Shown in pieces: positions 10,055-48,841 of a stretch of DNA of 64,000 bases. This DNA is from Candidatus Binatia bacterium. GTDB taxonomy: Bacteria; Desulfobacterota; Binatia; UBA1149; CAITLU01. Location: contig JBLFWR010000002.1 of NCBI GenBank assembly GCA_047611725.1, forward strand, positions 26,607 through 90,606, written 5' to 3'. Each line of letters begins with the position of its first letter. The stretch's first letter is position 1. The notes under the pieces are model-generated. The model was not told the origin of the DNA and did no database searches. It saw nothing but the letters and a program-made list of their open reading frames with translations. The position numbers and the translations under genes are program-made.

Positions 10055-11974
10055 ATGACCAAACGGGCGTCTTTGGCAGAAGCACGACAGGTGCTGACCG
10101 ACGTATTCAAGCATGCGGATTTCCGCGCGGGTCAGGATGACGCCGTGGTGGCCGCTCTAACCGGACGCGACGTATTGGTGCTACTTCCTACCGGCGCAGG
10201 AAAGTCGCTGTGCTACCAAATTCCAGCCCTTGTTGCCGCACACCGGGGCAACGGAACGACGATCGTGATCTCACCATTGATCGCACTCATGCAGGATCAG
10301 GTGGCCAGCCTAGGCAGCCGCGGAATCACCGCGGCTGCAATGCACAGCCACCTCAGCGACGAAGAGCGCAAGCAGGCCACTGCCAAATTTCTCGACGGGG
10401 AACTCGAACTACTTTATGTCTCGCCGGAACGAGCCGCTAGCCCAAGTTTTCGACGCCTGCTGAAACGCGCTGCTGTCGCACTCATCGCGATCGACGAAGC
10501 CCACTGCGTAAGCCAATGGGGACACGACTTTAGACCGGACTACATGCTGCTGGGCGAACTGCGCGAATTACCCGAAGTGGCCGACGCGCCCATGATTGCG
10601 CTGACCGCAACCGCAACGCCGGTGGTTATGAAGGAGATTGCAGCGCGCCTCGGGATGCGCGACCCAGCAATCGTACGAACTGACTTCGATCGCCCCAATC
10701 TCTCGTTCGCAGTGAATGCAATTAGCACTGAACGCGAGCGCAACGACGTCCTTGTGGAAGAGCTCGATCGCGCAGGGATTCGTGGCCGTTCGGGCCGTGG
10801 ACGCGCCATCCTATATTGCAGCACACGCAAGGTTACGGAACGGGTAGCAAAGGCGCTTCGAGCCTGCGGAGTAAGTGTGGGGTACTATCACGCCGGTCGC
10901 ACCAAGCTTGCGCGCGAACGAGCTCAACAGGCTTTCCTCGCCGGGCGCGTCCGCGTTCTCGTCGCCACCAACGCTTTCGGTATGGGGATCGACCTCCCAG
11001 ACGTTCGGCTGATCGTGCACTTTCAAATTCCTGGCAGTATTGAGGCGTACTACCAAGAGGCAGGCCGCGCAGGACGCGATGGCGACCCGGCACGTTGTCT
11101 TTTGTTCTTTGGCCGCGCCGATCTGATGACCCAGCGCCGACTGTCCGAAAAGTCCACGACGAGCGCAGCCTTGGGCGAGCGCCGCGATGACGCACTAGCC
11201 GGGATCGAACGCTACGCCACGCAATCCAATTGTAGGCACCAAACCCTGGTCTCCCATTTCAGCGGGAATCCCGACGAGCCAGAGTGTGGCCGCTGCGACT
11301 TCTGTCTTGGCGACATGTTTCTTGGCGGCATGTTTCTTGGCGGCAACGTGGAAACCGACAGCACGGCATCAAGCCGACGGGCAAGCGTACCTCTTGTTGT
11401 GCTTCCCGATGCCGCGAACGACGTAATCTTGGCAGCTGTAGACCGTCTCAAGCGACCCGTTGGGCGGCGAAACCTCGCGCAAGCATTGCGAGGAGGAAAG
11501 GCCAAAACTCTTTCACGGGGAGGGCTGTTGACGCTGCCCGAGTATGGAACGCTTTCCGAATTCAACGAAGATTCAGTGATCGCAGCGATCGATGATTTGT
11601 TGGCTAGCGGATTGCTGCAGCGTACGGGGAAAAAATACCCGACAGTCTGGATGCCCGGGAAACCGCTGCGCGCAGCAAACAAAACCCGCGGCGACGGAAC
11701 CGAAGCGCCGGTAGCGCGCAAAAAGGCTACGTCCAGTCGCTATGGCGGAGACATTGCTCGAGCGCTTGAAAACTATCGCAAGCGAACCGCTCGCACGCTG
11801 GGATGGAAGGCGTACATGATTTTCCAACGCCGGGTAATCATGGAAATCGATCGCAAGGAGCCTGATTCACTCGAAGCGCTGTCAAACATCGTGGGACTGG
11901 GGCCTGCGAAGATCGAGCGATTTGGAGAGGACGTGCTTGGGTTGGTACGGCAACATCGCCGCAAGGTGACCTAG
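10055..11974 (+). CDS. recQ: ATP-dependent DNA helicase RecQ (with C-terminal HRDC domain)
   Basis: FRAGQDDAVVAALTGRDVLVLLPTGAGKSLCYQIPAL, DEAH box (AIDEAHCVSQWGHDFRPDY), Zn-binding Cys cluster, HRDC at C-terminus; ORF begins 10004, start likely MTKRAS at 10055. Confidence 0.9.
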   Translation: MTKRASLAEARQVLTDVFKHADFRAGQDDAVVAALTGRDVLVLLPTGAGKSLCYQIPALVAAHRGNGTTIVISPLIALMQDQVASLGSRGITAAAMHSHLSDEERKQATAKFLDGELELLYVSPERAASPSFRRLLKRAAVALIAIDEAHCVSQWGHDFRPDYMLLGELRELPEVADAPMIALTATATPVVMKEIAARLGMRDPAIVRTDFDRPNLSFAVNAISTERERNDVLVEELDRAGIRGRSGRGRAILYCSTRKVTERVAKALRACGVSVGYYHAGRTKLARERAQQAFLAGRVRVLVATNAFGMGIDLPDVRLIVHFQIPGSIEAYYQEAGRAGRDGDPARCLLFFGRADLMTQRRLSEKSTTSAALGERRDDALAGIERYATQSNCRHQTLVSHFSGNPDEPECGRCDFCLGDMFLGGMFLGGNVETDSTASSRRASVPLVVLPDAANDVILAAVDRLKRPVGRRNLAQALRGGKAKTLSRGGLLTLPEYGTLSEFNEDSVIAAIDDLLASGLLQRTGKKYPTVWMPGKPLRAANKTRGDGTEAPVARKKATSSRYGGDIARALENYRKRTARTLGWKAYMIFQRRVIMEIDRKEPDSLEALSNIVGLGPAKIERFGEDVLGLVRQHRRKVT

Positions 11975-12245
11975 CAACACGGAGACCTAGCCACAGGGTG
12001 AGCCGCACGTGCCGCGCACCCTCCCATCGAAAACCGGAAGATAGCCCCTTCGCCGGGAGCACCCTGAGCGCTGATTGTACCCCCGTGACCGCGTACGATT
12101 CGTTCGGCCAACGCCAGCGCGACCCCAATCGCCGACACAACCGCAAGCAAACGGGCATTGGGAGTAGCCCAAGCCGTTCGCAACACAGCGAACAATATCG
12201 TCAAAGCCACGATACGGGTGCGGCTCTGAAGCGTCAGTGCGGTTT
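11971..12245 (-). pseudogene. Possible remnant of histidine kinase C-terminus (HATPase_c G2 box) without sensor/DHp portion
   Basis: GVALALAERIVRGHGGTISAQGAPGEGAIFRFSM resembles GLGLaIvkrIveaHGGrI...G.GttF; frame closed by TAA ~85 codons upstream, no room for full kinase between recQ and P450. Confidence 0.3.
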
Positions 12246-12454
12246 CGCGTTATAGTTCGTCCGCGATCTTCATCTGGTGACTCTCCTCGAAGGCCTAGCC
12301 GACCGAATCTAACATCCGGTGGCAACGTTAGAAACGACGAATCCAGTCGTAGAGAACTCGGACCCGCAGGCCGCGACATAGGCCGCCACCACAGGTATGG
12401 TCATCGCTCCGAGCCCCGCCACGAGTGAGACCTGACCAACGGAGAAAATGCTGC

Positions 12455-13639
12455 ATGCCGCCGAAAGCCACTGCCACCTTCAAACTACGCTCCGGCGAAA
12501 GCTGGCGAGACCCGTTTTCGATGTACAAGGCCTTACGCGACTTCGACCCTGTCCATCACGCGAGTGACGGCGACTACTACGTACTGACCCGTTTCGACGA
12601 TGTTTTCGCCGCAGCGGCCGACAGCGAAACGTTCTCGTCGGCCTCGGGCTTGACGGTCAACTACGGAGAGATCGAATCAGCCGGTATGGGCGATGCCACG
12701 CCAATGGTGTTTCTCGATCCGCCGGAGCACACGCAGTTTCGAAACCTGGTCACCAAACGATTGACGCCGAGAAAGGTCGCCGACATCGAGCCAGCGATTC
12801 GCGAATTTGTCGTTTCGCGAATCGAGCGTTGCCGTGAACTGGGCCAGGCCGACATTGTCTCAGAGTTGTTCAAACCCTTGCCCAGCTTCGTCGTCGCGCA
12901 CTATTTGGGCGTCCCCGAAGACGAACGCGCCTTGTTTGACGTGTGGACGGAAGCAATCGTCCAAGCCGCAGCCACTGGCGACGTTGCCACCTCCGGTGAT
13001 GCTTTTGGAGATCTACTCGGTTACTTCGCAGGCCTAATTGAAAGACGACGCACGGAACCGGCCGATGATATTGTCTCGGAGCTGGTCGCGCTCGGCGAAG
13101 ACACCGTTTCGATCGCGCGAATTCTCGGCTTCACCTTCACCATGGTTACAGGCGGAAACGACACAGTAACCGGCCTTTTGTCAGGAGGCTCCTGCCTGCT
13201 CACCGACCGACCGGAACAACGAACTAAGCTTCTGCGCGATCCTGACCTGATCGCAGGCGCTGTCGAGGAACTGCTACGACTCACCTCGCCGGTGCAAAAT
13301 CTGGCCCGCACGGCGACACGCGACGTCACGATCAACGGAGTCAAGATTCCCAAAGGCCGCAAGGTTCTATTGTCGTATGCCGCCGCCAATCGCGATGATC
13401 GTGAGTTCGGGCCGGCGGCAGAGGAATGCGAGGTCGAACGAAAAATCAAAAAGATCTTGAGTCTGAGTTACGGCACTCACTACTGTATCGGCGCCGCCGC
13501 AGCACGACTGCAGGGCCGTGTCGTATTTGAAGAGCTCCTAGCTCGATGTCCAGATTTTTCGGTTGATGTCGATGGCGGCCGCTACGCACCCGGCAACTAC
13601 GTACGCCGTCACGAGTCACTACCGTGGGCGACTAGCTAG
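12455..13639 (+). CDS. Cytochrome P450
   Basis: Heme-binding loop FGTHYCIGAAAARLQ (FxxGxHxCxG), EELLR (ExxR) motif; ORF from 12425, RBS-supported ATG at 12455. Confidence 0.9.
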   Translation: MPPKATATFKLRSGESWRDPFSMYKALRDFDPVHHASDGDYYVLTRFDDVFAAAADSETFSSASGLTVNYGEIESAGMGDATPMVFLDPPEHTQFRNLVTKRLTPRKVADIEPAIREFVVSRIERCRELGQADIVSELFKPLPSFVVAHYLGVPEDERALFDVWTEAIVQAAATGDVATSGDAFGDLLGYFAGLIERRRTEPADDIVSELVALGEDTVSIARILGFTFTMVTGGNDTVTGLLSGGSCLLTDRPEQRTKLLRDPDLIAGAVEELLRLTSPVQNLARTATRDVTINGVKIPKGRKVLLSYAAANRDDREFGPAAEECEVERKIKKILSLSYGTHYCIGAAAARLQGRVVFEELLARCPDFSVDVDGGRYAPGNYVRRHESLPWATS

Positions 13640-13763
13640 CTAGCTAACTAATTAGGCAGGCAGGCAGGCAGCCAGCCAAACCAGCTTTATGGTGGCCCTT
13701 CCCTATTGGGCGGCGCAGGTGCTAAGTCCGGTTTCGCCGAAATCCGGCCAAGGTAGGGACCAG

Positions 13764-14189
13764 ACCATGGAAGCAAGTGCGATTCTTCAACCCGTTATCG
13801 TCATGGGGCTACTTAGCACCGCAATGTTTGTGTGGATGCTCGCCACGCGCATTCCGGCGATGACAAAGCTAAAAATCTCCCCCCAGAAAGCTCAGAACAC
13901 TTCGGCGCTCATCGACCTGCTGCCGGCTGAGGTCACCCGCGTCTCAAACAACTACAACCATCTGTTCGAACAGCCGACGCTATTCTACGCCGTCGCGATT
14001 TCGCTTGCGGTTCTTGGTCACGTCGACTCCCTTCACGTCCAGTGTGCCTGGGCCTTCGCCACCATTCGCATCGTCCATTCAGTGGTGCAAGCCACGGTGG
14101 ACAACGTCAATGTTCGCTTCGGTCTGTTCTTACTTTCCTGGATTGCGCTGGGAACGATGATCGTGCGCGAAGCACTGATTATTTTCTAA
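13764..14189 (+). CDS. MAPEG-like small membrane protein
   Basis: ~140 aa, 3-4 TM helices; pattern resembling MAPEG superfamily; tentative. Confidence 0.4.
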   Translation, partial: TMEASAILQPVIVMGLLSTAMFVWMLATRIPAMTKLKISPQKAQNTSALIDLLPAEVTRVSNNYNHLFEQPTLFYAVAISLAVLGHVDSLHVQCAWAFATIRIVHSVVQATVDNVNVRFGLFLLSWIALGTMIVREALIIF

Positions 14190-14196
14190 ACCGCGT

Positions 14197-15132
14197 TTAA
14201 GGAATGGGATTGTTCCACGCGTCCTGATCGGCCGTGATGACGTTCCAGATCGTGGTGGTGTACAACGCCGCATCCTCTTCGGATATCCGTCGCGGGCGCC
14301 AAATGTCGGCGTCGAATTCGCGGGTGATCGTGTAGAGGAGAGTCACAGCAGCAACCCAGCGCCCGGTGGTGACAAGATGCTTACCGTCGCGGCGATAAAA
14401 AACCGCTGGGTTGCCCAAGGTCTTAAAAACTTCGCCTACCGGAGCAATCCTCGCGTTGAGATACGGGTCTTTGGCTATCGGAACATAGCCGCTGCAGGTT
14501 TGGGTTTGCGTGTCGCAACTATCGTCGGCCGTAAAGCACCACAGCTCGTTCGAACAGTTCTTCACTCCACTGCGCAAAACCTCGTAGTCAGGAATCCCTT
14601 CTTTCTTGCTCCCAACGCCACCCTGCCACGTCATAAGCAGAATGTGCTCTGAGGTCGGAGTCTGTTGGGCTAATCGGCAAAACCCACGATATCCATCGTT
14701 CTGAATGTCGTTGTCATTAAGGTCGGTAACATCTGTTTGACCGCCTGGAACGCAGGGATACTCGGCCGGACCCGGAGCGCCCGGATTGTAGTCAGCGGCG
14801 CCAAGCGAGTTTTCCTGAAGGACTACGAAGTCCCAACCCTGTGACAAAATGCGCGCGGTTCGGGCTCTCGTGGAATGTTCGCCAAGGGTCGCTCCGTTCT
14901 TTCGCGCATCCTTGAGGCGCGCATCAACGGCCAGCCCTTTGAACATGCGAGACAAGCCACGCTTGAGTCCTGCGGATAGGCTGTTGCCGACTAAGACCAC
15001 ACGCAGCTCTTCGGCCTGTGCCTGTTGCTGACTGGCGTTGGCAGTCTGCGCAACCCCGGCCAGGCCAAGCACTAGCGAGAGTGCGCCCGCTGCGGCGATA
15101 GAAATTGCACGTGCCTCGAAAAATAATCTCAC
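14197..15132 (-). CDS. Secreted SGNH/GDSL-like hydrolase
   Basis: GTG start with GGGGAG RBS gives signal peptide MRLFFEARAISIAAAGALSLVLGLAGVAQTANA; block I VVLVGNSLSAG and C-terminal DGKH (DxxH) typical of SGNH fold. Confidence 0.55.
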   Translation of the reverse strand: MRLFFEARAISIAAAGALSLVLGLAGVAQTANASQQQAQAEELRVVLVGNSLSAGLKRGLSRMFKGLAVDARLKDARKNGATLGEHSTRARTARILSQGWDFVVLQENSLGAADYNPGAPGPAEYPCVPGGQTDVTDLNDNDIQNDGYRGFCRLAQQTPTSEHILLMTWQGGVGSKKEGIPDYEVLRSGVKNCSNELWCFTADDSCDTQTQTCSGYVPIAKDPYLNARIAPVGEVFKTLGNPAVFYRRDGKHLVTTGRWVAAVTLLYTITREFDADIWRPRRISEEDAALYTTTIWNVITADQDAWNNPIP

Positions 15133-15149
15133 TATAGGACTCCCCAAAA

Positions 15150-15902
15150 CTATCGCCGGTCTTGCAACTTGGCGAGAAGGCGGAGGATTTCTAGGTACAG
15201 CCACACCAACGTCACCAGCAGACCAAACGCAGCGTACCATTCCATGTACGCGGGTGCGCCAGCTTCGGCCCCTTCCTCGATGAAATCGAAGTCGAGCACG
15301 AGGTTGAGCGACGCAATAATCACGACGCCCACGCTGAAAAGAATTCCAAAGGTTCCGCTCGAATGAATCAACGGAATGCTCGATCCGAAGAAACTCATCA
15401 CGAAGGACACCACGTAGATCATCATGATCCCACCGGTGGCGGCAAAAACTCCGAGCTTGAAGTTCTCAGTCGCCTTGATGAGCCCTGAGCGGTAAGCCAT
15501 CAACAGGGCGCCCAGCGTTCCGAACGTAAGAAAAATCGCCTGACTTGCGATGCCCGGATAGCGGGCCTCGAACGAAACAGAAATTCCGCCAAGCGCCAAC
15601 CCCTCCAGGGCCGCATAGGCCGGGGTAGTATAGGGTGCCCAGGTCTTCTTGAAAATGGTGGCCATGGCCATCACGAAGCCGCCAATGAAACCACCCATCA
15701 TCAATGCGCCAGCGCGGGGATCGGCGGGGCCAAGGCTCCAGGTCCAGCTTGCGGTGGCGAAAAGAATGATCAGCGCCACTGCGGTCTTGTTCACGGTGCC
15801 GGCCACCGTCATCACGTCGTTGTCACCAAACGACGTGGCGTTGCTGAAGGTTTTGGCGGACAGGGCGGGATTTCCGGATCGAAGGGCCAAGTGTGAGCTC
15901 AT
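15150..15902 (-). CDS. Bax inhibitor-1/YccA-family membrane protein
   Basis: 7-TM protein with characteristic BI-1/YccA hydrophobic pattern and charged C-terminus (LAKLQDRR). Confidence 0.78.
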   Translation of the reverse strand: MSSHLALRSGNPALSAKTFSNATSFGDNDVMTVAGTVNKTAVALIILFATASWTWSLGPADPRAGALMMGGFIGGFVMAMATIFKKTWAPYTTPAYAALEGLALGGISVSFEARYPGIASQAIFLTFGTLGALLMAYRSGLIKATENFKLGVFAATGGIMMIYVVSFVMSFFGSSIPLIHSSGTFGILFSVGVVIIASLNLVLDFDFIEEGAEAGAPAYMEWYAAFGLLVTLVWLYLEILRLLAKLQDRR

Positions 15903-15997
15903 AGGGTGATCCTTGGTTGTTCCGCCCGTGCCGTCAACTCAGGCACCGGCGAAACGCGACAACCACGCGAATAACCGAGCGCGGCTGCCTCGCCGAA

Positions 15998-17217
15998 CTA
16001 CTCCTCAGAAAGCCCGCCGCAGGGTGGGCACAGAAGATCCACGTCCTGTCCCACTGCGTTTCGAAGACAGATCAAAGCATCGCTGGCAGCTGGAGTCGCG
16101 CGTCCGCTCTTTGGAATACCGCATTGCTGACAAACGATCTCAGTCACCTCGACCACCGGCACTGTCCCGCCGCACATGGCATCGAACGGGCCAATGGTGA
16201 TCGCGAAATCCTCGGGCAAGACCGGGTCGGAAATCGTCACGTAGGTACATTCGGCCAATTTGGCTGGGGTCTGCAACATCGTCGTCGCTTCGAAGTTCGC
16301 GTTGAGACGCTTTTCGGCCAGGTCGGCTCCAAAGGACCATTCGCCGTCGGAGGCAATGGCCTCGCAGCCGCCACCTTTACCCGGAAAGCTTCCCTTCTCC
16401 CGATCGAAGCCAACTCTAAACTCCAACGCTTCCAACGGTCCGACATCGACGGCGCCGAATCAAATCGTGCACTGCCTGTCCGCATCAGCACCGCAGACCG
16501 GGGCTCGCGTCGGCGGGTGACTGCAGGAACCCGCGCCATCGCAGAAGTCATCCGTGCAAATGTCGGCGTCGTCGGTGCAAGCGGTAGGCTCGTTAACTAT
16601 ACAGTCGTCGTCGATCTCGTCGCAGGCGTCCTGACATTCCGCGCTGCCGATACAGGGATCGCCGTCGTTACAAACAACGTCGGTACACGGGTCCGGATTT
16701 CGCCGAGCGGCGTGAGTTCAAAACTAACCATGGCACTGTCAAAACGAAGAAAACTTGTTGCAATGAACGTATCGGGGGCAGGATTCTCGCCCCGCGCCCC
16801 TTCAACGGCAGGTGCAACGATGGCAATTACGCTGAACTGATCGACGGGAACCGGAAACTCAAGAATTTCACCCGCGCCGACTTCTCGGTCACCGTTCTCA
16901 GTGTCGCTGACCAGAAAACGCCCGTCGGTAATCTCGTAGTCGAACCCCTCAGCTTCATTCGCCGCGAACCAAAGCCCACTACCATCCTGCTCGGTGGTCA
17001 CCGGCCGCTCAAACGAACCCGGGATCCCAGCTCGAACCGTGACGCCGACCAAATCCTGAAAGCCACTGATCTTCGCAAGCTCTGACTGGGTCACCGATGC
17101 CTGAAAGAAGGGAACGCCTCGGATCCCGGCATTGGCGAAAAACTGAAGCACCTCGTCGGAAGACGCCCCGAGGCAAGTAGCACACATCGACTTCGCACTG
17201 ACTTCCCGATTGCGCAA
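15998..17217 (-). pseudogene. Disrupted gene for Cys-rich repeat (CxxDxxCxDG) protein: frameshift near 16700-16740 and in-frame TGA at ~16460-16462
   Basis: N-terminal part in ORF 16597..17217; Cys-rich repeats NPDPCTDVVCNDGDPCIGSAECQDACDEIDDDCIVNEPTACTDDADICTDDFCDGAGSC lie in the -1 frame with no start; that frame hits TGA then continues as ORF 15998..16435 (8 codons later). Confidence 0.5.
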
Positions 17218-17253
17218 AAATCACCTGAGAACCGAAATGAGACCCCAATCCCG

Positions 17254-17709
17254 ATGTTAACTATTTTTGTCGATGCTGACGCCTGCCCCGTCAAGGACGA
17301 GGTCTACCGCGTCGCCACCCGCTGCGAGCTCCAGGTGAGAGTTGTAGCCAACAGCTTCATTAACGTTCCGCGTGATGGACGGGTTGAACTCATCACCGTG
17401 GGTTCAGGCGACGACGTGGCCGATGACTGGATCGCCGAACGGGCGGGCCCCGGCGATATCGTGGTCACCGCCGATATTTTGTTGGCCTCTCGCTGCCTAA
17501 AGGCCGGAGCTCGCGTCATCGGAACCAAAGGACTCGAGTTCACCGAAGACTCGATTGGCGGAGCGCTGGCCGGACGCGAACTCTCGCAACAGCTGCGCGA
17601 GATGGGCATGGAGACACGCGGCCCCGCCCCCATGGAAAAGAAGGACCGCGGACGCTTTCTGAACACTTTGGACACTGTGATTCAGGCGATTCGTCGCGCC
17701 AACGGATGA
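17254..17709 (+). CDS. YaiI/YqgV-family protein (UPF0178/DUF188)
   Basis: [33 protein letters not shown]... typical UPF0178 N-terminus. Confidence 0.8.
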
Positions 17710-18419
17710 AACACGCGCTTGTAATCGGGGATTCTGACGGCATCGGGCTCGCGCTTACCAGGCGCCTTATCGGGGAAGGCTGGAGCGTAAGCGGAATTTC
17801 CCGCAGCGAACTCGAATTGCCAGACTTGGCCGACAGCGCGTACACACACCTAACTTGTGATGTTCGGGCCGAAGACTTCCGGCAGCGGCTTCAGGAACTC
17901 GACCAGAACCATCCGGTTGATCTGTGTGTTTACTGCGCTGGAGTGGGAGAGGAACTCGACTTGGTTGCACTCAAGGCGGGCCAGCTCGCCAACGACGCGG
18001 CCACCTTCGACGTCAATTTGAACGGAGCTGTGGCGGCGATGGAAATCATTGGTGGCGCAATGTTACGACGTGACTCCGGGCACTTCATCACACTTTCGTC
18101 TCTAGCCGACGCGACGCCGTCGGCCTCGGCACCATCGTACGCAGCGTCGAAAGCGGCGATGAGTTACTACTTCGAATCTCTCGGCTTGGCCCTGCCGCGA
18201 AGCTCGGGCGTGGCGATCACAAATGTTCGCTATGGTTTTGTCGATACGAAGATGGCCAAGTCACCTGTGCGCCCCTTCATGATGAGCGTGCCGCGTGCGG
18301 TTGACGTTGTGATGCGAGCGATCCAAACCCGTCCGCTTCGCGTAACAAAGCCTTGGCCGATGGCCGCGATTATGAGCGTACTTCGCTGGACCACACAGTG
18401 GAGAATTCGTTTGCGCTGA
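17706..18419 (+). CDS. SDR-family oxidoreductase
   Basis: [16 protein letters not shown] Rossmann motif, YAASKAA catalytic motif; ATGA overlap with upstream gene. Confidence 0.8.
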
Positions 18420-18487
18420 CGGTTCAAACGAACCAAGCGGTCGCCCCCCAGGCACCGCCAAGAGCACATGCAAGAAGGAGTTTTGGA

Positions 18488-19084
18488 ATGAGTGAAGCCA
18501 GCGCAGCCAAGCAAACAACGTTCACCGCCATGCGAGATGGCACACGCGAAGATTTCCAGATCATCGGCCAGCACAGCCTCGAGCTGTTCACGGGCCTACC
18601 CGGCCGTGTGCTCGCCCACTTAAATCTCTTGGCCGGCGACACGGGTGGTTATGCGGTCGATCGACTCACCCACAGCTTGCAAACCGCAACACGTGCGCGC
18701 AGAGACGGCCGTGACGACGAATATGTTGTCTGCTCGCTGCTCCACGACATCGGCGACACGCTGGCTACGTCGAACCACGCCGACCTTGCAGCAACCATTC
18801 TCGAACCTTTCGTTTCTGAGAAGAACCACTGGATCGTGAAGCATCACGCCATCTTCCAAGGGTACTACTTCTTTGAACACCTCGGACTCGACCCGAACAT
18901 GCGCGATCAGTTCCGTGACAACCCATGGTGGCGCGACTGTGCCGAGTTCTGCGAGATCTACGATCAGAACAGCTTCGACCCCGAGTACGACACGCTACCA
19001 CTGGAAGCGTTTACCCCCGCCGTACAAGCCGTCTTCGCCCAACCGCGCAAGTCGATTTACTTAAAAGAGCCCAAACAGGACTAG
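18488..19084 (+). CDS. HD-domain metal-dependent phosphohydrolase/oxygenase-family protein
   Basis: HSLQTA...LLHDIGD HD motif; AAGGAG RBS 8 nt before ATG 18488 (ORF from 18353 overlaps SDR). Confidence 0.72.
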   Translation: MSEASAAKQTTFTAMRDGTREDFQIIGQHSLELFTGLPGRVLAHLNLLAGDTGGYAVDRLTHSLQTATRARRDGRDDEYVVCSLLHDIGDTLATSNHADLAATILEPFVSEKNHWIVKHHAIFQGYYFFEHLGLDPNMRDQFRDNPWWRDCAEFCEIYDQNSFDPEYDTLPLEAFTPAVQAVFAQPRKSIYLKEPKQD

Positions 19085-19093
19085 GGCTGCGCA

Positions 19094-19684
19094 CTATTCG
19101 TCGCGCAACCACCAAGCCAGCAACGCTTCGCAGTCCTGTCGTTCAAGAGGGCGACCGGTAAACCGTTCTATTTCTTCCGCGACCATTGAAGCGACGCGAT
19201 CAGCCGCTGCGCGAACCCGTTGGCTAAGCCCTGTTCCAATTTCGCTCGTGGCCGGAATCGCCCCGATCAAGAGAACTTCGCGTGGCCCCGTACCCGCAAG
19301 TTCAACAAGCCAAAGTGCTTCGGCGAGAGCCGGGTCATGCGGACTCACCCGCGGCTTCATCGGAAGATTGCGAAGTTCTTCGCCTTGGTAACAGCAGATA
19401 TCACCGGGGTCGCCTTCGGCGGCCACCGCGTCGATTAGCACAACTTTCTCGCGTTCGTGGAGGTGCCCGGCCAGATCAAGACCCGGGGTTCCCGCGTCGA
19501 GCAGTTCGACATCGTCGGGGATCTTCCACCCCGCCCTTACCAACTCAACAACGCTTGGGCCGAACCCGTCGTCGCCAAGCAGCACGCTCCCGATCCCAAC
19601 AACGACAAGCGCAGCACGCGGTCCATCGATAGTCTGCGCAGGTGGACGCTCGGTGCCCTGCGTCGCGTAAACCGCAGTGGTCAC
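19094..19684 (-). CDS. [NiFe]-hydrogenase maturation endopeptidase (HyaD/HybD/HoxM family)
   Basis: LVVVGIGSVLLGDDGFGPSVVELV, LDAGTPGLDLAGHL, VVLIDAV; start uncertain (ORF to 19750, GTG at 19684 plausible). Confidence 0.78.
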   Translation of the reverse strand: MTTAVYATQGTERPPAQTIDGPRAALVVVGIGSVLLGDDGFGPSVVELVRAGWKIPDDVELLDAGTPGLDLAGHLHEREKVVLIDAVAAEGDPGDICCYQGEELRNLPMKPRVSPHDPALAEALWLVELAGTGPREVLLIGAIPATSEIGTGLSQRVRAAADRVASMVAEEIERFTGRPLERQDCEALLAWWLRDE

Positions 19685-19713
19685 AGCACCTTCACTGTCG
19701 CGATCTCGCGACC

Positions 19714-20058
19714 CTAAACGTCTAACGTGTGACAGGCGCAGGCCATACACGGGTCAAACGAGTGGACGGTTCGCAACAATTCCAATGGCCGTTCGGCATC
19801 GGCAACCGGATTTCCCAACAGCGACGCCTCGTAGGGCCCGGGCACCGATGCTTCGTCGCGGGGGCTGGCATTCCAAGTCGTCGGTACCACCGCTTGGTAG
19901 TTGGCGATCGCATGTACAGTCGAAAGATCTCCGTCGAAAATCGTCCCACCCGGAATATCGAACTCTGTCGAGGCCGAGTCGGTGGGTAAATCCGGGACTG
20001 CTAAGTAGTCGCGCACACCACCACCGATCTCGAACCACTCCGGATAGAACCCGGCGAT
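19714..20058 (-). pseudogene. 3' remnant of [NiFe]-hydrogenase large subunit (C-terminal ~110 codons only)
   Basis: IANYQAVVPTTWNASPRD...LRTVHSFDPCMACACH is the large-subunit C-terminal Ni-binding DPCxxCxxH motif; frame closes at 20059-61 where IS-derived sequence begins; no N-terminal 400+ codons present. Confidence 0.75.
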
Positions 20059-20243
20059 CTAGAGCAGGCCATTGGCCGCTTCGTGAGCTACTACAACGAA
20101 CGGCGCTACCACGAGTCTTTAGGGAACATCACGCCAACAGACATGCACGACGGCCGCCAGAACGAAATACAGATGCGTCGAATTAAGCTTAAACGGGAAA
20201 CGATGGCCGAACGCCGTCGCGAGAACTTAAAAACCGCGGCCTA
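20056..20243 (+). mobile_element. IS3-family transposase C-terminal remnant (last ~60 codons of integrase/rve domain)
   Basis: DLEQAIGRFVSYYNERRYHESLGNITPTDMHDGRQ matches conserved IS3 OrfB tail (..YYNheRpHsaLgy.tPaef); no upstream transposase body, abuts hydrogenase fragment. Confidence 0.65.
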
Positions 20244-20293
20244 GCCGCATAGACACGGCAAGGAGTGACTCTTATTTAGCGCCACAATTTTTC

Positions 20294-21478
20294 TCAATTC
20301 AGCTGACGACGTACACGCATCGCGAGTTCTTTAAGCGCAGCGACTATTTCGCTGGCGCGGACGGGGTTCCCGCCCGGGCGGGCAAACGACCCAACACCAG
20401 CGGGCATATCAATGAACATACGAAGCACCCTGTATAGCTGCCCCATATAAGAAGTTTCGACGACCAATCCTGCTTCAACGGTCGCGAAGAACCGACGGTA
20501 GAGACCTTCGTTTATGGGGAACAGAAAACGCGGCACAAGCAACTTGACATTCAACCCTTGTTGCGTTGCACGGCGAAGCGCCTCACGACACACACCGGCG
20601 TTAGATCCCCACGCAATCAGTGCCAGCGGTGCTGTCAATTCACCCTCGATATCGAAGAGATCGTCGCGCTTGCACAGGGGTTCGAACTTGCGAATGCGCT
20701 TCTCAGTCATCAGCGCATGCATACGACCGCTGGACGTAGGGTTGCCGTGTGCGGAGAACACAGCTTGGAATAGATCACTCTGCTCGGCCTTAGTGGGCAT
20801 TCCGGTAGAAGGGCCACCTCGTTGCACGTTGACAATCACCAACGGCAGTTCCGCGATCGTCGCCAGCCCCATGATTTCGGTCTTCAGCGACATGTCGGGA
20901 CCCGACGTCGCGGTCATCGCCTTCTTGCCACCGAACGAGGCGCCAAGCGCTGCCCCAATACTCGCAATTTCGTCTTCGCATTGCAGAACCACGCCGCCGT
21001 AGCCCCAGATCTCGCGCGAGAGAAACTGCATGATCTCGGTTGAGGGCGTAATCGGGTATCCGCCAAAAAAATCACAGCCGGCGAAAATGGCGGCGGCGGC
21101 GCACATCTCGTTTCCATCGACGAGCATTCGCTTTCCAGCCTCAGCGACTGGGTCGATGGTGCGTGGCTGGGCCATAGGATTGGCTTGAGCGAACTCTAGG
21201 CCAGCGGCGAACGCGCGCTCGTTGGCTTCGACCAGCTTCTCTCCCTTCTTGGCGAACCTGGCTGTCAATCCTTTCAAAATCGCGTGTTGGTCGATCCCGA
21301 ACCAACCGGCGATGAGGCCAAGCACGACGGTGTTCTTTGCCTTGTCAGTACTGGCGGTCTTGCGCGCGATTTCTGAAATGGGGACGGGGATTACTTCAAG
21401 CGGAGTGACGCCGGCCAGCGGCAGGGCGTCTGGAGCAATTTTGGAGGCGATGTCATAAACGACAACGGTTTTTCCCCT
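20294..21478 (-). CDS. 2-oxoacid:ferredoxin oxidoreductase alpha subunit-like (KorA/OorA) with partial N-terminal gamma-like domain; possibly 5'-truncated
   Basis: DGNEMCAAAAIFAGCDFFGGYPITPSTEI, MTATSGPDMSLKTEIMGL, domain II WGSNAG; upstream frame open only to 21478 (GKTVVVYDIASKIAPDALPL...), too short for full gamma domain; no korB adjacent. Confidence 0.65.
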   Translation of the reverse strand, partial: RGKTVVVYDIASKIAPDALPLAGVTPLEVIPVPISEIARKTASTDKAKNTVVLGLIAGWFGIDQHAILKGLTARFAKKGEKLVEANERAFAAGLEFAQANPMAQPRTIDPVAEAGKRMLVDGNEMCAAAAIFAGCDFFGGYPITPSTEIMQFLSREIWGYGGVVLQCEDEIASIGAALGASFGGKKAMTATSGPDMSLKTEIMGLATIAELPLVIVNVQRGGPSTGMPTKAEQSDLFQAVFSAHGNPTSSGRMHALMTEKRIRKFEPLCKRDDLFDIEGELTAPLALIAWGSNAGVCREALRRATQQGLNVKLLVPRFLFPINEGLYRRFFATVEAGLVVETSYMGQLYRVLRMFIDMPAGVGSFARPGGNPVRASEIVAALKELAMRVRRQLN

Positions 21479-21565
21479 TCATCGCACCAGTAATGCCGCT
21501 TTCATGCCAACCTTGGGAACGACGCTGGTCACCGCGCCGGGACAGTTCGGTTACGGCGTTCGGGT

Positions 21566-22654
21566 CTAGTCTTGTCCGTGCTGCTGCACCCGACGCCACC
21601 CTCGTGGCGATAGGCCGACATGTCGGCGGAATGCACGATCGAAAGCACTCAAATCTCCATAGCCCAAAAGGAATGCGATCTCGGTGACCGCCAGACCGGG
21701 CTGCGCTAGGTACTGTTTGGCGAGTTCCGTACGTACTTCGCCGAGCAACGACTTGAAACCCAGCCCCCGCAGCTGCAACTGCCGTTGCAGGGTACGCGGA
21801 CTCGTGGCCAGCCGCCGCGCGACATGGCCGATGTCCGGACTTCCATCGCAGAGCGTTCGCGCGAGTTCGTCTCGCAGCCGCGTCACGAGTGGATCCGATT
21901 CGCCACGCCCGATGACATCGCCGACATACTTCTCGATGACTGGAAGTAAACTACGATCGGCATTCGGAACAGCGCGAGCGAGATACGCCGCGTCGAAAAA
22001 AATAGAGTTTCGTTCGGCCTGGTAACGAACGGTTGCCTGAAGGCGCGCCTCAACTCCTTCAATGGAGTCAAAGGAGTCAACGGGGGCGTGCTCGAACCAA
22101 ATTTCGCGAGGCTTCCAGTCGTCGCCCGCCAGCGCTTTCATCATCACGCACAATACTAAGGCCGTACTTTCGAAGAACTGTCGGTGCCGGTCCGGATCAG
22201 GCAACCCCACTGTGAACGCGATCCGCGCGACGTCGTCGGCCACGGTCAGCTCAGCATTGATTCCCGTCACCGAAAGATTGCCCGAGTAGCGCGCGAGATT
22301 CTTCAGCGCCGTTTCAACATCTGCAGCGTTGAGAACGACGTAAGACAACAACCCAAACGATTGCAGGGGCACAATCGCACCGAAGCTCAATCCAAACTGT
22401 GGGTCGTTGAGTTCTTCGGCGGCGGCTTCGTAGAGCCAGGCCATGCGATCCAACGCCAGCCAGCCCTCGGGTTGGGAAAGCTCGGCCTCCACGATGCCGA
22501 CGGCATGCAGAACACGGAGGCCGGAGCCACCGCGGGCGTCTATATAAGCGGGCAACGTGGCGGTTCCGCCGATACGTATCTTTGGAGCTGACGCTGACCT
22601 GGTCGCTGATCTGGCTTCTGATTTGGCCTTTGATTTGGCCTCTGATGACGACAT
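21566..22654 (-). CDS. AraC-family transcriptional regulator (AraC-binding-like N-domain + C-terminal AraC HTH)
   Basis: C-terminal LLGEVRTELAKQYLAQPGLAVTEIAFLLGYGDLSAFDRAFRRHVGLSP; ORF to 22666 (GTG) with low-complexity KSKAKSEARS N-terminus. Confidence 0.85.
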   Translation of the reverse strand: MSSSEAKSKAKSEARSATRSASAPKIRIGGTATLPAYIDARGGSGLRVLHAVGIVEAELSQPEGWLALDRMAWLYEAAAEELNDPQFGLSFGAIVPLQSFGLLSYVVLNAADVETALKNLARYSGNLSVTGINAELTVADDVARIAFTVGLPDPDRHRQFFESTALVLCVMMKALAGDDWKPREIWFEHAPVDSFDSIEGVEARLQATVRYQAERNSIFFDAAYLARAVPNADRSLLPVIEKYVGDVIGRGESDPLVTRLRDELARTLCDGSPDIGHVARRLATSPRTLQRQLQLRGLGFKSLLGEVRTELAKQYLAQPGLAVTEIAFLLGYGDLSAFDRAFRRHVGLSPRGWRRVQQHGQD

Positions 22655-22676
22655 GAACGCCGACACTGCTGCTTCA

Positions 22677-25200: not shown

Positions 25201-27306
25201 ATGAAACACCTTTCCCTGGTCGCAAGCGCGGCCGATGAGCGCGTGAACGAGCTTGCGTTGGAAGACGCTCCCACTACGCCCGAGGCGGACGCCGCACCTG
25301 AGGCGGAAGCCAAAGAAGCCGTAGCAGCCCCCTCTCCGTTCGAAGGGGTTGCGGACCCGCTTCGCAAAGCCCTGGAAAAGCGTGGCTTCGACTCGCTCAC
25401 CGAGGTGCAAACCGCCGTACTTGCCGCCGGCGCGGAGCAGCGTGATCTGCAGATTTCCTCTCAAACGGGATCTGGCAAAACCGTCGCGCTGGGGCTTGTC
25501 CTGGCCCCGAGGCTGCTTGAAGCGGCAAAGGATGGCGGAGGCGGCCGTCCACTCGCCGCCTTGGTCATCGTTCCAACGCGTGAGTTGGCGGTGCAGGTCA
25601 GTGGCGAACTGAAATGGCTGTACGCCAAGATTCCGGGTCTAAACGTTGAATGCGTCACTGGCGGAAGCAGCGTTGGGCAGGAACGGCGGCGACTGGAACG
25701 ACGCCCCACCCTTGTTGTCGGAACACCTGGGCGCATGCTCGATCACATTCGCACGCGCGCCATCGATTGTAGCAAGGTCAATGAAGTCGTCCTCGACGAA
25801 GCTGACCGTATGCTCGACATGGGCTTTCGCGAAGAACTTGAAGGCATTCTCGATGCAACGCCTTCAGAGCGCAGCACCCATCTAGTATCCGCCACATTCT
25901 CCACGCTGATTCAGAAACTCGCGAAGAAGTATCAGAATGACCCGCTTCCCGTGCAGGGCACCCGCCTGGGCGCAGCCAATCAGGACATCGAGCACGTCGC
26001 GCACCTGACTCGTTTTCCCGATCGCTATGATGCCATCGTCAATCTCCTTCTTTTGGCTGGAGACGAGCGCGCGCTGATTTTTGTGAACACACGCGTGGAA
26101 GCGTCATCGCTTGCCGAAAAACTCGCGGCCGACGGTTTCCCCGCTGCTCCAATCAGTGGAGAGCTGGAACAGGCACAACGGACGCGCACTTTGGATTCGT
26201 TCCGAAACGGCAGAACCACTGTGCTTGTCGCAACTGATGTGGCCGCGCGTGGACTCGACATTCCTGACGTCGCAGTGGTGATTCACACCGATGCGCCCAT
26301 GGACCACGAAAGCTATACGCATCGATCAGGTCGTACGGGTCGCGCCGGCAACAAGGGTCGCAGCGTCTTGCTGGTTTCCCCCCAACGTCGCAAGAAGGTC
26401 GAGTACCTGCTCTCACGTGCCAAGGTTAAATTGACGTGGGCCGATGTGCCGACCGCAGCCAGCGTCGAGAAGACTATCGCCAAACGCGCAAGACAGCGGC
26501 TGCACGAATCCCTGACGACCGCCGCGGCGCCCGATGAAGCGCAGATCAACCACGCCAAAGGCCTTTTGGAAGATATGGAGCCGGAAGTTTTGGTCGCTCG
26601 TCTTGTCGAGCTTTGCCGAAGCGCAACCAAAGCCGCTCCCCGCAAGGTTGAAACCATGCCGGTGGACAACGACAACAGTCGTGGTGGTGACAAACGAAAC
26701 TCCTACCGCGACCGTCACGAAACCGGACGGCGTGGCTACGAGCCAAGTGGCGGAAGTGGCGGAGGATACCGCAACGACCGCAGCCAAGACTCCCGCGGCG
26801 GCGGCTACCGTGACCGTGACGATCGTGGGCAAGCCCCTCGTAGTGGTGGCGGCTATCGTGACGATCGCGGGCAAGACTCCCGTGGCGGCGGCTACCGTGA
26901 CGACCGCGGCCAAGACAACCGTGGTGGTGGCGGCTATCGCGACGACCGCGGCCAAGACAACCGTGGTGGCGGCGGCTATCGCGACGACCGCAGCAGCGGC
27001 GGTTACCGCGACAACCGTGGTGGTGATCCGCGCGGCGAACGCACGGTCCCGGAAGACTCAAGACCCGCCGAATTTGAAGTCAATTGGGGGCACCGAGGCG
27101 GGGCTACCCCTCAGCGGCTTGTCGCATTGCTATGCCGACGTGGGGACATCACGAGCCGCATGATTGGAGCAATCGACATCGACACACATACGGCCCGTTT
27201 CGAAGTTTCGGGTCGCGTCGCCCGTCGATTCGAAGACAGCGCTGGGATGCCCGACTCACGCGATCCTGACATCTTCATCCGTCGCGCCAAGATCAATCGG
27301 CGCTAG
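25201..27306 (+). CDS. DEAD-box ATP-dependent RNA helicase with RGG/GYRDDRGQD repeat linker and C-terminal DbpA-type RNA-binding domain
   Basis: Q-motif/Walker A SQTGSGKT, DEAD (VVLDEADRMLDMGF), SAT, HRSGRTGRAG; six GGGYRDDRGQDxR repeats; DbpA-like C-terminus. Confidence 0.9.
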   Translation: MKHLSLVASAADERVNELALEDAPTTPEADAAPEAEAKEAVAAPSPFEGVADPLRKALEKRGFDSLTEVQTAVLAAGAEQRDLQISSQTGSGKTVALGLVLAPRLLEAAKDGGGGRPLAALVIVPTRELAVQVSGELKWLYAKIPGLNVECVTGGSSVGQERRRLERRPTLVVGTPGRMLDHIRTRAIDCSKVNEVVLDEADRMLDMGFREELEGILDATPSERSTHLVSATFSTLIQKLAKKYQNDPLPVQGTRLGAANQDIEHVAHLTRFPDRYDAIVNLLLLAGDERALIFVNTRVEASSLAEKLAADGFPAAPISGELEQAQRTRTLDSFRNGRTTVLVATDVAARGLDIPDVAVVIHTDAPMDHESYTHRSGRTGRAGNKGRSVLLVSPQRRKKVEYLLSRAKVKLTWADVPTAASVEKTIAKRARQRLHESLTTAAAPDEAQINHAKGLLEDMEPEVLVARLVELCRSATKAAPRKVETMPVDNDNSRGGDKRNSYRDRHETGRRGYEPSGGSGGGYRNDRSQDSRGGGYRDRDDRGQAPRSGGGYRDDRGQDSRGGGYRDDRGQDNRGGGGYRDDRGQDNRGGGGYRDDRSSGGYRDNRGGDPRGERTVPEDSRPAEFEVNWGHRGGATPQRLVALLCRRGDITSRMIGAIDIDTHTARFEVSGRVARRFEDSAGMPDSRDPDIFIRRAKINRR
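26745..27010 (+). repeat. Degenerate ~39-bp in-frame tandem repeats encoding (GGGYRDDRGQDSR)n inside helicase gene
   Basis: Six consecutive protein-level repeats visible in translation; nucleotide copies diverged. Confidence 0.8.
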
Positions 27307-48828: not shown

Positions 48829-48841
48829 TCTCATCCCCTCC

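Follow-up and report, generated by a model that had tools for sequence, protein, structure and literature searches.

Independent lesions probably left hydrogenase, 2-oxoacid oxidoreductase and IS3 remnants beside an intact hybD-like protease gene

Results

A cluster of gene remnants with at least six lesions

Positions 19094-21480 of the analysed DNA (a 64-kb stretch from a Candidatus Binatia bacterium, hereafter the window) probably represent a cluster of dead gene remnants that was generated by several independent lesions and not by one event (probability about 0.85). Within ~2.4 kb, broken pieces of a hydrogenase gene, a 2-oxoacid oxidoreductase gene and an insertion sequence (IS) lie beside one intact protease gene, and at least six separate lesions were counted (Table 1). 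A sequence-only reading of the same DNA had named a hydrogenase, an IS3 element, a protease and a korA-like gene and had explained the locus as a single deletion scar. Homology searches confirmed all four gene identities. A single deletion also remains the simplest account of the junction at 20058|20059, but it covers only part of the lesions at the locus. Judged from the coding potential that is left, none of the remnants (hybC, korA-like gene and IS) can provide a working enzyme. Searches of the 64-kb window by tblastn with proteins of relatives detected neither korB, nor hyp genes, hybOAB or the remaining parts of the IS.

Table 1. Features and lesions of the remnant locus (positions in the window).
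Feature	Position	Strand	Basis
hybD-like [NiFe]-hydrogenase maturation endopeptidase gene, apparently intact	19094..19684	-	PF01750, TIGR00072, 1cfz alignment
hybC remnant, Hyd-2-type [NiFe]-hydrogenase large subunit	19681..20058	-	PF00374, structural matches, tblastn
Premature TAG, hybC C-terminal extension	19714..19716	-	Glu (GAG) in homologues
Internal hybC deletion junction, in frame, 177 codons	19903..19908	-	ATCGCC (Ile-Ala) at both L006 partner sites
Head-to-head junction, hybC codon 264 (-) / IS3 transposase interior (+)	20058..20059	.	Homology limits
IS3-family 3'-terminal piece, 257 bp	20059..20315	+	Transposase C-terminus homology and right-end comparison
korA-like remnant, 2-oxoacid:ferredoxin oxidoreductase alpha subunit (gamma-alpha fusion)	20316..21475	-	Pfam, TIGR03710, BLASTP/tblastn
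In-frame 106-codon korA deletion junction, Gly codon GGC	20744..20746	-	Comparison with L009, L007
Spacer, korA 5' breakpoint to AraC-family gene stop, 90 bp	21476..21565	.	Homology limits
AraC-family regulator gene, intact	21566-22666	-	
Lesion 1: IS insertion into korA			
Lesion 2: IS-to-hybC deletion			
Lesion 3: 177-codon in-frame deletion, hybC			
Lesion 4: nonsense codon, hybC			
Lesion 5: 106-codon in-frame deletion, korA			
Lesion 6: 5' truncation, korA			

The hydrogenase large-subunit gene is reduced to two pieces

Translation of the minus strand between 19714 and 20058 matched PF00374 in two stretches (E 2.6e-40) and displayed the sequence DPCMACACH, a DPCxxCxxH motif with two Ni-Fe cysteine ligands, which was aligned to the C-terminus of Hyd-2. 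This is in agreement with the earlier assignment of the segment to a NiFe hydrogenase large subunit. Hyd-2 large subunits were the best structural-database matches (5xvb, E 3e-38; 6ehq), both stretches could be aligned to these two proteins, and the best NCBIfam match was 'hydrogenase 2 large subunit'. Direct homologue searches with the hydrogenase fragment gave only short proteins (≤197 aa), and a full-length HybC orthologue was reached via the neighbourhoods of protease genes in relatives. The fragment covers two separate parts of a 565-aa orthologue: fragment residues 1-52 align with orthologue residues 264-315, and fragment residues 51-125 with 491-565, indicating that a mid-gene piece is joined in frame to the true tail of the protein. 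By tblastn with HybC of the relative L006, residues 264-315 were located at 20058-19903, and the tail reached down to 19684. Thus, 125 of 565 codons survive and 440 of 565 residues are absent. The earlier description of the segment as the last ~110 residues of the subunit is thus incorrect, as residues 264-315 are fused ahead of the tail 491-565 and the stop that closes the reading frame is a nonsense TAG.

At the junction of the two pieces the window reads GCGATCGCCAAC, and the corresponding partner sites in L006 are CGCATCGCCGGC on the left (residues 314-315) and AAGATCGCCAAC on the right (residues 491-492). The window C-terminus, HTLDV*GREIATVKVL*, was compared with the homologous ends HTLDVEGKTIATVKVL* (L006), HTLDVEGRTIATVKVL (P0005) and HTLDVEGNVKATVQVL (P0002). 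The TAG is the fifth codon past the His, and the ten codons beyond it (GREIATVKVL) still resemble the homologues up to the native TGA at 19683-19681. The C-terminal extension, which is the substrate of the protease, is interrupted in the remnant.

A counterpart of the N-terminal RxCGxCxxxH motif, which carries the other two Ni-Fe cysteine ligands and is present as RFCGVCTTVH near the N-terminus of the L006 orthologue, was not found anywhere in the 64-kb window by tblastn. Likewise, HybO, HybA, HybB and HypA-F of L006 gave no tblastn match in the 64 kb, consistent with the earlier statement that the small-subunit gene and the rest of the large-subunit gene are gone. In the two pieces, the remnant is identical to orthologues at 40/52 and 64/75 positions, and intact orthologues are identical to one another at 36/52 and 64/75. 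As the remnant has diverged no further from intact orthologues than these have from each other, inactivation of hybC is recent.

The relatives carry hypFCDEAB-hybOABC-hybD. In the nearest of them, the genes for the small subunit, a Fer4 protein, an NrfD-like protein, the large subunit and the protease follow the hybOABCD order of the E. coli and Citrobacter Hyd-2 operons (group 1c), and the remnant shares with Hyd-2 the DPCxxCxxH motif and a recognisable C-terminal extension of ~15 residues. The window differs from these systems in its two-piece hybC with 125 of 565 codons and a nonsense codon, and in the absence of the small-subunit, HybA, HybB and hyp genes. Best hits and the operon structure of the relatives, rather than a HydDB classification, suggest the assignment to group 1c.

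The hydrogenase remnant abuts the 3' end of an IS3-family element

Hydrogenase homology stops at 20058 and IS homology starts at ~20059. The IS piece comprises the last 62 codons of orfB (stop codon TAG at 20242-20244) and a non-coding right end of 71 bp, which finishes with …TGACGACGTACA; the fragment therefore extends past the transposase stop codon to 20315. Approximately 1.2 kb of an element of ~1.45 kb, namely orfA, the DDE core and the left end, are absent. In 225 plasmid records that bear the annotation IS3 family transposase, the 62-residue tail was matched with 100% query coverage and ~50% identity, and it coincides with the extreme 3' end of a transposase CDS (1352 nt) of Agrobacterium vitis. 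In a protein search the only non-self relatives were 63% identical. Scores against rve_3 (26.4 bits, cutoff 26.5) and NF033516 (positions 340-368 of 369; 23.1, cutoff 160) were weak because the piece is short. The earlier reading had placed the C-terminal ~60 residues of an IS3 transposase on the plus strand from ~20056, and had noted that hydrogenase and transposase both lack their 5' parts. Both observations are borne out, the two truncated genes facing each other head-to-head at 20058|20059.

The right end was defined with two copies of a related IS (L015 and L017; 63% amino acid identity), which diverge right after GACGACGTACA. This 12-mer lies at 20304-20315 of the window, and its reverse complement TGTACGTCGTCA occurs once only in the window. 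A related full-length element sharing the right terminus GACGACGTACA possesses an orfA with HTH_Tnp_1 and an orfB with rve/rve_3. The IS3 element of Agrobacterium vitis was also considered as a guide to the right end and was rejected, being too divergent (~50% amino acid identity) and providing no usable terminal repeat. IS3-family elements have the ends TG…CA. The window piece resembles the family in its tail, which aligns over the full length, and in a right end finishing in CA, and it differs in that only the last 257 bp of ~1.45 kb are kept, with no orfA, catalytic core or left inverted repeat. The orfA and orfB body of L017 had no tblastn match in the 64-kb window. The 257-bp fragment cannot transpose.

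The korA-like gene is truncated at both ends and carries an internal deletion

On the other side of the IS piece, BLASTP and tblastn revealed the segments 90-335 and 439-587 of P0242, a homologue of 597 aa, and the remnant has 57-67% identity to full-length alpha subunits. Pfam coverage comprises POR (gamma, PF01558) 92-173/173, POR_N (domain I, PF01855) 2-116/231 and PFOR_II (domain II, PF17147) 2-102/102. The domain order POR(gamma)-POR_N-PFOR_II is that of KorAB-type oxidoreductases (OFOR), and TIGR03710 is the best family, with 350.9 bits below the cutoff of 482.75. The remnant differs from these enzymes in lacking 89 N-terminal codons, 106 internal codons (half of domain I), the last 12-14 residues and the beta-subunit gene. 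The substrate would have been 2-oxoglutarate or another 2-oxoacid. The earlier description of a korA-like gene with half a gamma domain and no beta subunit is correct as far as it goes, but it had missed the internal deletion and the 3' end truncated by the IS.

In the annotated 343-aa ORF of the remnant (20294-21325), the final six codons and the stop codon are contributed by the IS end. At the internal junction the protein reads FSAHG|NPTSSG; the partner sites in L009 and L007 are SAHG|D… and …NE(K/N)G|(N/A)PT, which are 106 codons apart, and GGCG is found at both partner sites in L007. Residues 1-89 of the korA homologue had no tblastn match anywhere in the window. In relatives, korA is directly followed by korB, which lies 3-53 bp downstream. 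A beta-subunit gene (TPP_enzyme_C / PFO_beta_C) was not found after the korA-like remnant, where the IS end occupies its position, and the only KorB-like match in the 64 kb is the TPP domain of a separate PFOR of 1228 aa. Both internal deletions of the locus, in hybC and in the korA-like gene, are in frame, which has a chance of 1 in 9 and proves nothing either way.

The junctions are reproduced in independent assemblies

A misjoin at 20058|20059 is not supported by the assemblies: besides the contig of the window, the junction is seen in a JGI contig assembled independently and in a contig of the Logan collection from another run. The JGI contig (L001) differed by 2 mismatches in 14,575 bp, the Logan contig L014 by 2 mismatches in 9,611 bp, and the Logan contig L002 was identical; all of them show the same lesions over the parts that they cover. 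Within the locus, the only SNP between window and JGI contig is A>T at 21493 in the spacer next to the AraC-family gene. L014 ends at 20088, 30 nt past the junction, and L002 begins at 20286, 29 nt ahead of the last IS position (20315). These breaks lie k-1 (k = 31) into the IS fragment from both sides, suggesting that the samples also contain longer copies of this IS.

The linkage between the hybC and korA remnants is provided by two contigs, and the 257-bp IS fragment between them is apparently repeated and would have been bridged by short-read assemblers. A chimeric join through the repeated segment, in which hybC'-hybD and korA'-AraC are not truly adjacent, would be compatible with the Logan breaks, which show that the 257 bp occur repeatedly in the samples; the segment also exceeds the usual length of a short read. 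Such an artefact is nevertheless improbable: the same join occurs in the 97,851-bp contig of the window and in the 86,883-bp JGI contig, which come from different samples and are 2 SNPs apart, and each boundary junction is backed by k-mers in other runs. Moreover, a wrong linkage would alter adjacency only, leaving remnants and lesions as they are.

A proposed history of the locus

In the sequence of events that we favour, an IS3 element would first have inserted about 12-14 codons before the stop of the korA-like gene, with its transposase gene antiparallel to korA. The right IS end lies inside the korA-like gene, and insertion is the event that it suggests. Subsequently, a deletion by illegitimate recombination would have started in the interior of the transposase gene, at a distance of 62 codons from the stop, and reached hybC at codon 264, taking with it ~1.2 kb on the left side of the IS, the tip of korA, korB and everything up to the middle of hybC. 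Loss of korB would follow from the position of the right IS end in the 3' end of korA, which places korB in the deleted interval. If the ancestor possessed the 11-gene operon of the relatives, hypFCDEAB and hybOAB would have disappeared in the same step, which amounts to at least ~12 kb. The junction at 20058|20059 was observed directly; a single step and a deletion of this size are what it would imply.

Four further lesions, which come later in this scheme, are present in the window: 177 codons of hybC are deleted between two ATCGCC sites, as read in the orthologue, a GAG in the C-terminal extension is mutated to the nonsense codon TAG, 106 codons of korA are lost at a GGC(G) microhomology, and the first 89 codons of korA are removed together with upstream DNA by a deletion ending 90 bp from the AraC gene. 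A microhomology mechanism is suggested by relatives, which are not the true ancestor. hybD would then be the surviving last gene of the former operon.

The strict form of the earlier reading, in which one deletion from hybC through a nearby IS made the whole scar, accounts for the head-to-head junction and for the 5' parts missing from both genes. It can yield neither the 177-codon gap nor the TAG in hybC, and neither the 106-codon gap, the 5' truncation nor the IS end inside korA. Furthermore, the relatives L005, L006, L007 and L009 retain HybC residues 316-490 or KorA residues 336-438. As an explanation of the whole locus, it is refuted.

A rearrangement in several steps, in which two IS copies, one in korA and one in or near the hyb/hyp region, recombined and so eliminated or reordered the interval before a small deletion took away the left portion of the resulting hybrid element and the 5' half of hybC, is unlikely but deserves more weight. 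Longer IS copies appear to be present in the same samples, and korAB and hyp-hyb, which are not neighbours in the relatives found (57-67% identity), would be brought together more easily by a rearrangement. On the other hand, more events are needed than for a single deletion, and the 64 kb hold no second IS end, target duplication or other IS remnant. Flanking genes were also used as anchors. For the AraC neighbour, a scan of GTDB genomes returned as nearest match a 61% identical protein on a 3-kb contig labelled Myxococcales, with no synteny information. A metagenome scan with the HD-domain neighbour yielded 80 loci at 69-84% identity, none of which had hyb, kor, AraC or other window neighbours nearby.

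The hybD-like protease gene appears intact

The statement that the protease gene is apparently intact was corroborated by a full-length match above the cutoff to TIGR00072 (1-145/145; 124.9 bits, cutoff 47.45) and by conservation of the metal-ligand positions. PF01750 was matched with an E-value of 4.8e-21 (score 75.4, cutoff 23), and the score for the narrower subfamily TIGR00140 (108.1) fell below its cutoff of 151.8. Translation probably starts at the GTG 19684-19682, in a GTGA shared with the native stop codon of hybC; in relatives, hybD likewise closes the operon, with a 4-nt overlap with hybC. The longest ORF runs to 19750 (19094-19750, 218 aa), and databases annotate this ORF instead of the 196-aa model. 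In the 1cfz alignment, D39, D85 and H116 sit at the three metal-ligand positions of E. coli HybD, Glu16, Asp62 and His93. These three columns are invariant in 118 homologues. Of the 46 columns that are conserved at ≥85% in this set, 42 are kept in the protein, and 16% of the homologues deviate as much. One population SNP, L188S, falls into a variable column. Relaxed constraint was considered and dismissed, as the exchange N33S in the GxGN motif also occurs in 2 of 118 homologues and the number of deviations is unexceptional. Terminator-like hairpins in the hybD scan were at chance level.

Most likely, hybD is still an intact ORF because it has not yet been struck by a lesion. With only 591 bp, its escape from the few lesions that struck the neighbours is unremarkable. 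A second explanation is that the orphan gene is in use and held by selection, either because it matures another hydrogenase encoded elsewhere or because it has another role. The full-length ORF, the three metal-ligand positions and the 42 of 46 conserved columns would fit such a role. Against it, a hydrogenase maturation endopeptidase normally acts specifically on the large subunit whose gene lies next to its own, and of the large-subunit gene adjoining hybD only a remnant is left. The operon promoter and the translational coupling partner have both been lost, and a sigma-70-like promoter was not detected upstream of hybD, although the scan has little power in this phylum. Other group 1 hydrogenases (1f, 1h, 1i) are frequent in genomes of Binatota (PMC8262859) and would be conceivable partners. 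Overall, selection is quite unlikely. There is a slimmer chance still that a selected orphan HybD acts in trans on a hydrogenase of another group or is a protease with a new substrate; if true, this would challenge the concept of one protease for one hydrogenase.

Discussion

Deletions associated with IS elements or short direct repeats are known from genomes rich in IS elements and pseudogenes, such as Shigella, Bordetella pertussis and Mycobacterium leprae. The locus resembles these cases of bacterial gene loss: gene fragments border on an IS fragment, repeats of 3-6 bp, as judged from orthologues, mark the internal deletions, and an operon is lost with its terminal gene left behind. There is no difference in kind, the present case being a single locus of an uncultured organism. 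It is ordinary pseudogene decay of a kind already known and implies no new biology.

The remnants are annotated as genes. NCBI and IMG list a 'Ni,Fe-hydrogenase I large subunit' of 100 aa for the hybC piece, a 'pyruvate/2-oxoacid:ferredoxin oxidoreductase alpha subunit' of 343 aa for the korA-like piece and a 'putative transposase' of 53 aa for the IS piece. An HMM-based survey would consequently attribute to the lineage both H2 oxidation and an enzyme of the KorAB type, neither of which can be provided by this locus. This calls for caution in annotation and metabolic inference.

The locus also offers a multiply reproduced snapshot of an 11-gene hydrogenase operon in the course of disappearing, in which the terminal gene survives longest. 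Group 1c hydrogenases are patchy in Binatota, with 6 sequences across the genomes analysed (PMC8262859), and decay of the hyb operon fits this distribution.

Structure of the decayed hydrogenase locus

The region comprising hybD, a hybC remnant (hybC'), an IS3-family fragment and a korA-like remnant (korA') is more aptly viewed as a locus that decayed recently through several hits, with three gene remnants lying beside one surviving terminal operon gene. The sequence-only reading had proposed a single deletion scar; this term fits one junction and does not fit the locus as a whole. Homology searches upheld all four proposed gene identities.

Coordinates of the locus and of other features of the window
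Feature	Position	Strand	Remark
145-aa ORF	15998-16435	minus	called as gene in Logan contig
206-aa ORF	16597-17217	minus	called as gene in Logan contig
307-aa ORF	within 15917-17217	plus	overlaps minus-strand ORFs
hybD	19094-19750	minus	hydrogenase maturation protease
hybC'	20058-19714	minus	114-residue fragment
IS3-family frame	~20059 to TAG 20242-20244	plus	transposase C-terminus
korA'	21475-20294	minus	2-oxoacid:acceptor oxidoreductase alpha subunit
Helicase gene	25201-27306		DEAD-box/DbpA
Direct repeat	26815-26991	plus	within helicase gene
MNT/HepT-type pair	31281-32185	plus	toxin-antitoxin module
Porin-cytochrome-like module	46672-51868
Pyruvate:ferredoxin oxidoreductase	53563-57249	plus	1228 aa, single polypeptide

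The hydrogenase large-subunit remnant is composite

A Pfam search of the translated hybC' frame matched the Ni-dependent hydrogenase large subunit (PF00374, E 2.6e-40), and the frame encodes DPCMACACH. A contiguous hydrogenase tail had been claimed. Instead, two separate stretches are joined in frame: in a phmmer search against PDB sequences, residues 1-54 of the fragment corresponded to residues 265-318 and residues 44-114 to residues 486-556 of the Hyd-2 large subunit. Comparison with a full-length orthologue of 565 aa (L006), reached via the gene neighbours of protease homologues, gave the same picture. The first part equals L006 HybC residues 264-315 (identity 40/52), and the second, residues 491-565 (64/75), is joined straight onto residue 315, an internal in-frame loss of 177 codons. 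ATCGCC (Ile-Ala) is present at both partner sites in L006 and once at the window junction (19908-19903). Read from this relative rather than from the true ancestor, the gap bears the hallmark of deletion across a pair of short direct repeats.

The hybC C-terminus reads HTLDV*GREIATVKVL* in the window and HTLDVEGKTIATVKVL* or HTLDVEGRTIATVKVL* in homologues. Since the homologues read through where the window has a stop, TAG 19714-19716 has taken the place of a Glu codon (GAG) within the C-terminal extension; the stop codon ending the hybC ORF is thus itself a lesion. The native hybC stop, TGA (19683-19681), is retained and overlaps the start codon of the protease gene as GTGA; L006 has the same 4-nt hybC/hybD overlap. 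Because intact orthologues differ from one another at least as much as the remnant differs from them, inactivation is recent on that scale.

The IS3-family fragment and its boundaries

The plus-strand frame next to hybC' resembles the extreme C-terminus of IS3-family transposases. Profile libraries (Pfam, NCBIfam) support this assignment weakly because the piece is short. In a tblastn search against plasmids, 225 records annotated as IS3 family transposase matched the tail over its full length with ~50% identity; in Agrobacterium vitis the tail aligns with the final 62 codons of a transposase CDS of 1352 nt. At the left boundary, hydrogenase homology extends to 20058 and IS homology begins at ~20059.

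The right boundary is placed at 20315 by two independent lines of evidence. A related IS (63% amino acid identity in the tail) was recovered from several contigs. Two copies of it with different flanks (L015, L017) share their sequence as far as …TTTGACGACGTACA and differ immediately beyond it; aligned with the window, TGACGACGTACA lies at 20304-20315, and this 12-mer occurs once in the window. Logan contigs from two other sequencing runs end exactly 30 nt inside the fragment from opposite sides, L014 spanning 10478-20088 and L002 beginning at 20286. This is the expected behaviour of k = 31 de Bruijn unitigs, which we take these contigs to be, if further copies of 20059-20315 occur in the sample. 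The samples thus probably contain longer IS copies. The related element carries an HTH_Tnp_1 orfA and an rve/rve_3 orfB, so that the window's IS has lost ~1.2 kb, which included orfA and all of the catalytic core.

The korA-like gene is truncated at both ends and internally

The korA' frame scored 350.9 bits against TIGR03710, in line with its proposed KorA-like identity although under the 482.75 cutoff. It represents residues 90-335 and 439-587 of the 597-aa homologue P0242. No match to P0242 residues 1-89 was found anywhere in the window, as anticipated for a gene lacking its N-terminus, and only positions 2-116 of 231 are left of the Pfam domain POR_N. Between the 5′ breakpoint and the stop codon of the neighbouring intact AraC-family gene there are only 90 bp. 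DNA comparison with two relatives (L007, L009) revealed an in-frame gap of 106 codons at Gly codon 20744-20746, and GGCG occurs at both partner sites of this gap in L007. Compared with P0242 and a second homologue, P0243, the gene is cut ~12-14 codons ahead of its native end; with the IS ending at 20315, the annotated 343-aa ORF draws its last six codons (VRRQLN) and its stop from IS sequence.

In relatives the beta-subunit gene starts 3-53 bp downstream of korA, a position occupied in the window by the IS end. The suspected absence of KorB is borne out by this arrangement and by tblastn, whose only hit was weak and fell on the TPP domain of an intact but unrelated pyruvate:ferredoxin oxidoreductase (POR_N, PFOR_II, POR, EKR, two Fer4 and TPP_enzyme_C). 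A 2-oxoacid:ferredoxin oxidoreductase of a different type thus persists in the organism, 32 kb away from the defunct korA-like gene.

The protease gene appears intact

The hybD product matched PF01750 (E 4.8e-21) and covered TIGR00072 over 1-145/145 (124.9 bits, cutoff 47.45). In an alignment to E. coli HybD (1cfz), Asp39, Asp85 and His116 occupy the three positions that bind the metal. Against 118 homologues, the product keeps 42 of the 46 conserved columns (≥85%), and 16% of the homologues show as many deviations or more. Two of the 118 share N33S in the GxGN motif. The sole population variant observed, L188S (19122; L014), lies in a variable column. Judged from its sequence the gene looks intact, as first thought; the structural alignment, the homologues and the single variant showed no discernible decay and, likewise, nothing that speaks for selection. 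A selected orphan protease, the only reading with some novelty, is unlikely.

Two contigs of one JGI sample (86,883 and 46,800 bp) end within hybD (~19109-19750), giving partial products of 214 and 123 aa. Together with L188S, these ends point to variation between strains or to a break in the assembly graph inside the protease gene.

Missing genes and reproducibility of the locus

In the two relatives with the closest protease, its gene comes last in an 11-gene cluster (hypF-hypC-hypD-hypE-hypA-hypB, small subunit, Fer4 protein, NrfD-like protein, large subunit, protease), which has the order of E. coli hybOABCD with the hyp genes placed in front. Using tblastn over the 64 kb, only the described remnants were found of this cluster, KorB and the IS orfA and orfB body, consistent with the supposed loss of the small subunit and the remaining large subunit. 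In two long-read-style ENA contigs of relatives, a hybC orthologue shifts frame ~120 codons from its end (L005 8306-10003) and a korA orthologue is called without the gamma domain (L009 9411-10001). Both probably stem from indel errors in assembly, not from genuine pseudogenes, so that these relatives should not be tallied as additional decay cases unchecked. Genome surveys of Binatota describe scattered group 1c, 1f, 1h and 1i hydrogenases, with 1c found only six times (PMC8262859), which is compatible with lineage-specific loss.

The locus structure is real and reproducible. A residual risk is that short-read assemblers, which had to bridge a 257-bp repeat, mis-joined the hybC' and korA' halves; against this, the 97,851-bp source contig and a separate 86,883-bp JGI contig (L001), with two SNPs over 14,575 bp, have the same structure. 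Logan contigs (SRR28416802, SRR28416755) piecewise cover every lesion, the interior of the IS fragment excepted. Even with a mis-join, all remnants and lesions stay in place.

Proposed order of events

The AraC-family gene, korA', hybC' and hybD all read from the minus strand; the IS transposase reads from the plus strand, and the right IS end adjoins korA. In the simplest order, the IS would have inserted near the korA 3′ end, followed by one illegitimate deletion from the transposase interior through the left part of the IS, the korA tip, korB and intervening DNA to hybC codon 264. The two in-frame internal deletions, the hybC nonsense codon and the korA 5′ truncation would be separate events. 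If the ancestor had the relatives' operon and if the two loci were adjacent, which is an assumption, the loss would amount to at least ~12 kb. Since korAB and hyp-hyb are not neighbours in the available relatives (57-67% identity), an IS-mediated rearrangement followed by a smaller deletion stays a live alternative.

Annotation and other features of the window

IS-associated and microhomology-mediated gene loss is well known. The practical weight lies in annotation, as fragments listed as genes in public databases could mislead metabolic reconstructions. All three remnants are annotated as ordinary protein-coding genes in IMG and in two NCBI MAGs (MFT4569325-MFT4569328 and MFT5039220-MFT5039223; window 19094-21325). 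The same DNA is labeled Candidatus Binatia bacterium in one MAG and Hyphomicrobiaceae bacterium in the other; Binatia is more credible, as those protease homologues that carry a name are from MAGs of Binatia, 'Deltaproteobacteria' and Myxococcota.

The ORFs at 15917-17217 had no Pfam match. The direct repeat (138-bp stretches, 42-bp offset, 85.5% identity) is probably due to a repetitive tail at the helicase C-terminus. On the JGI contig (L001 12173-13077), a nucleotidyltransferase (Polbeta/NTP_transf_2) gene paired with a HepT-like gene was called. In the porin-cytochrome-like module, a 762-aa ORF that weakly matches the MtrB/PioB outer-membrane barrel lies between two multihaem c-type cytochromes (287 and 617 aa; MtrC/MtrF-like domains, paired CXXCH), which suggests extracellular electron transfer.
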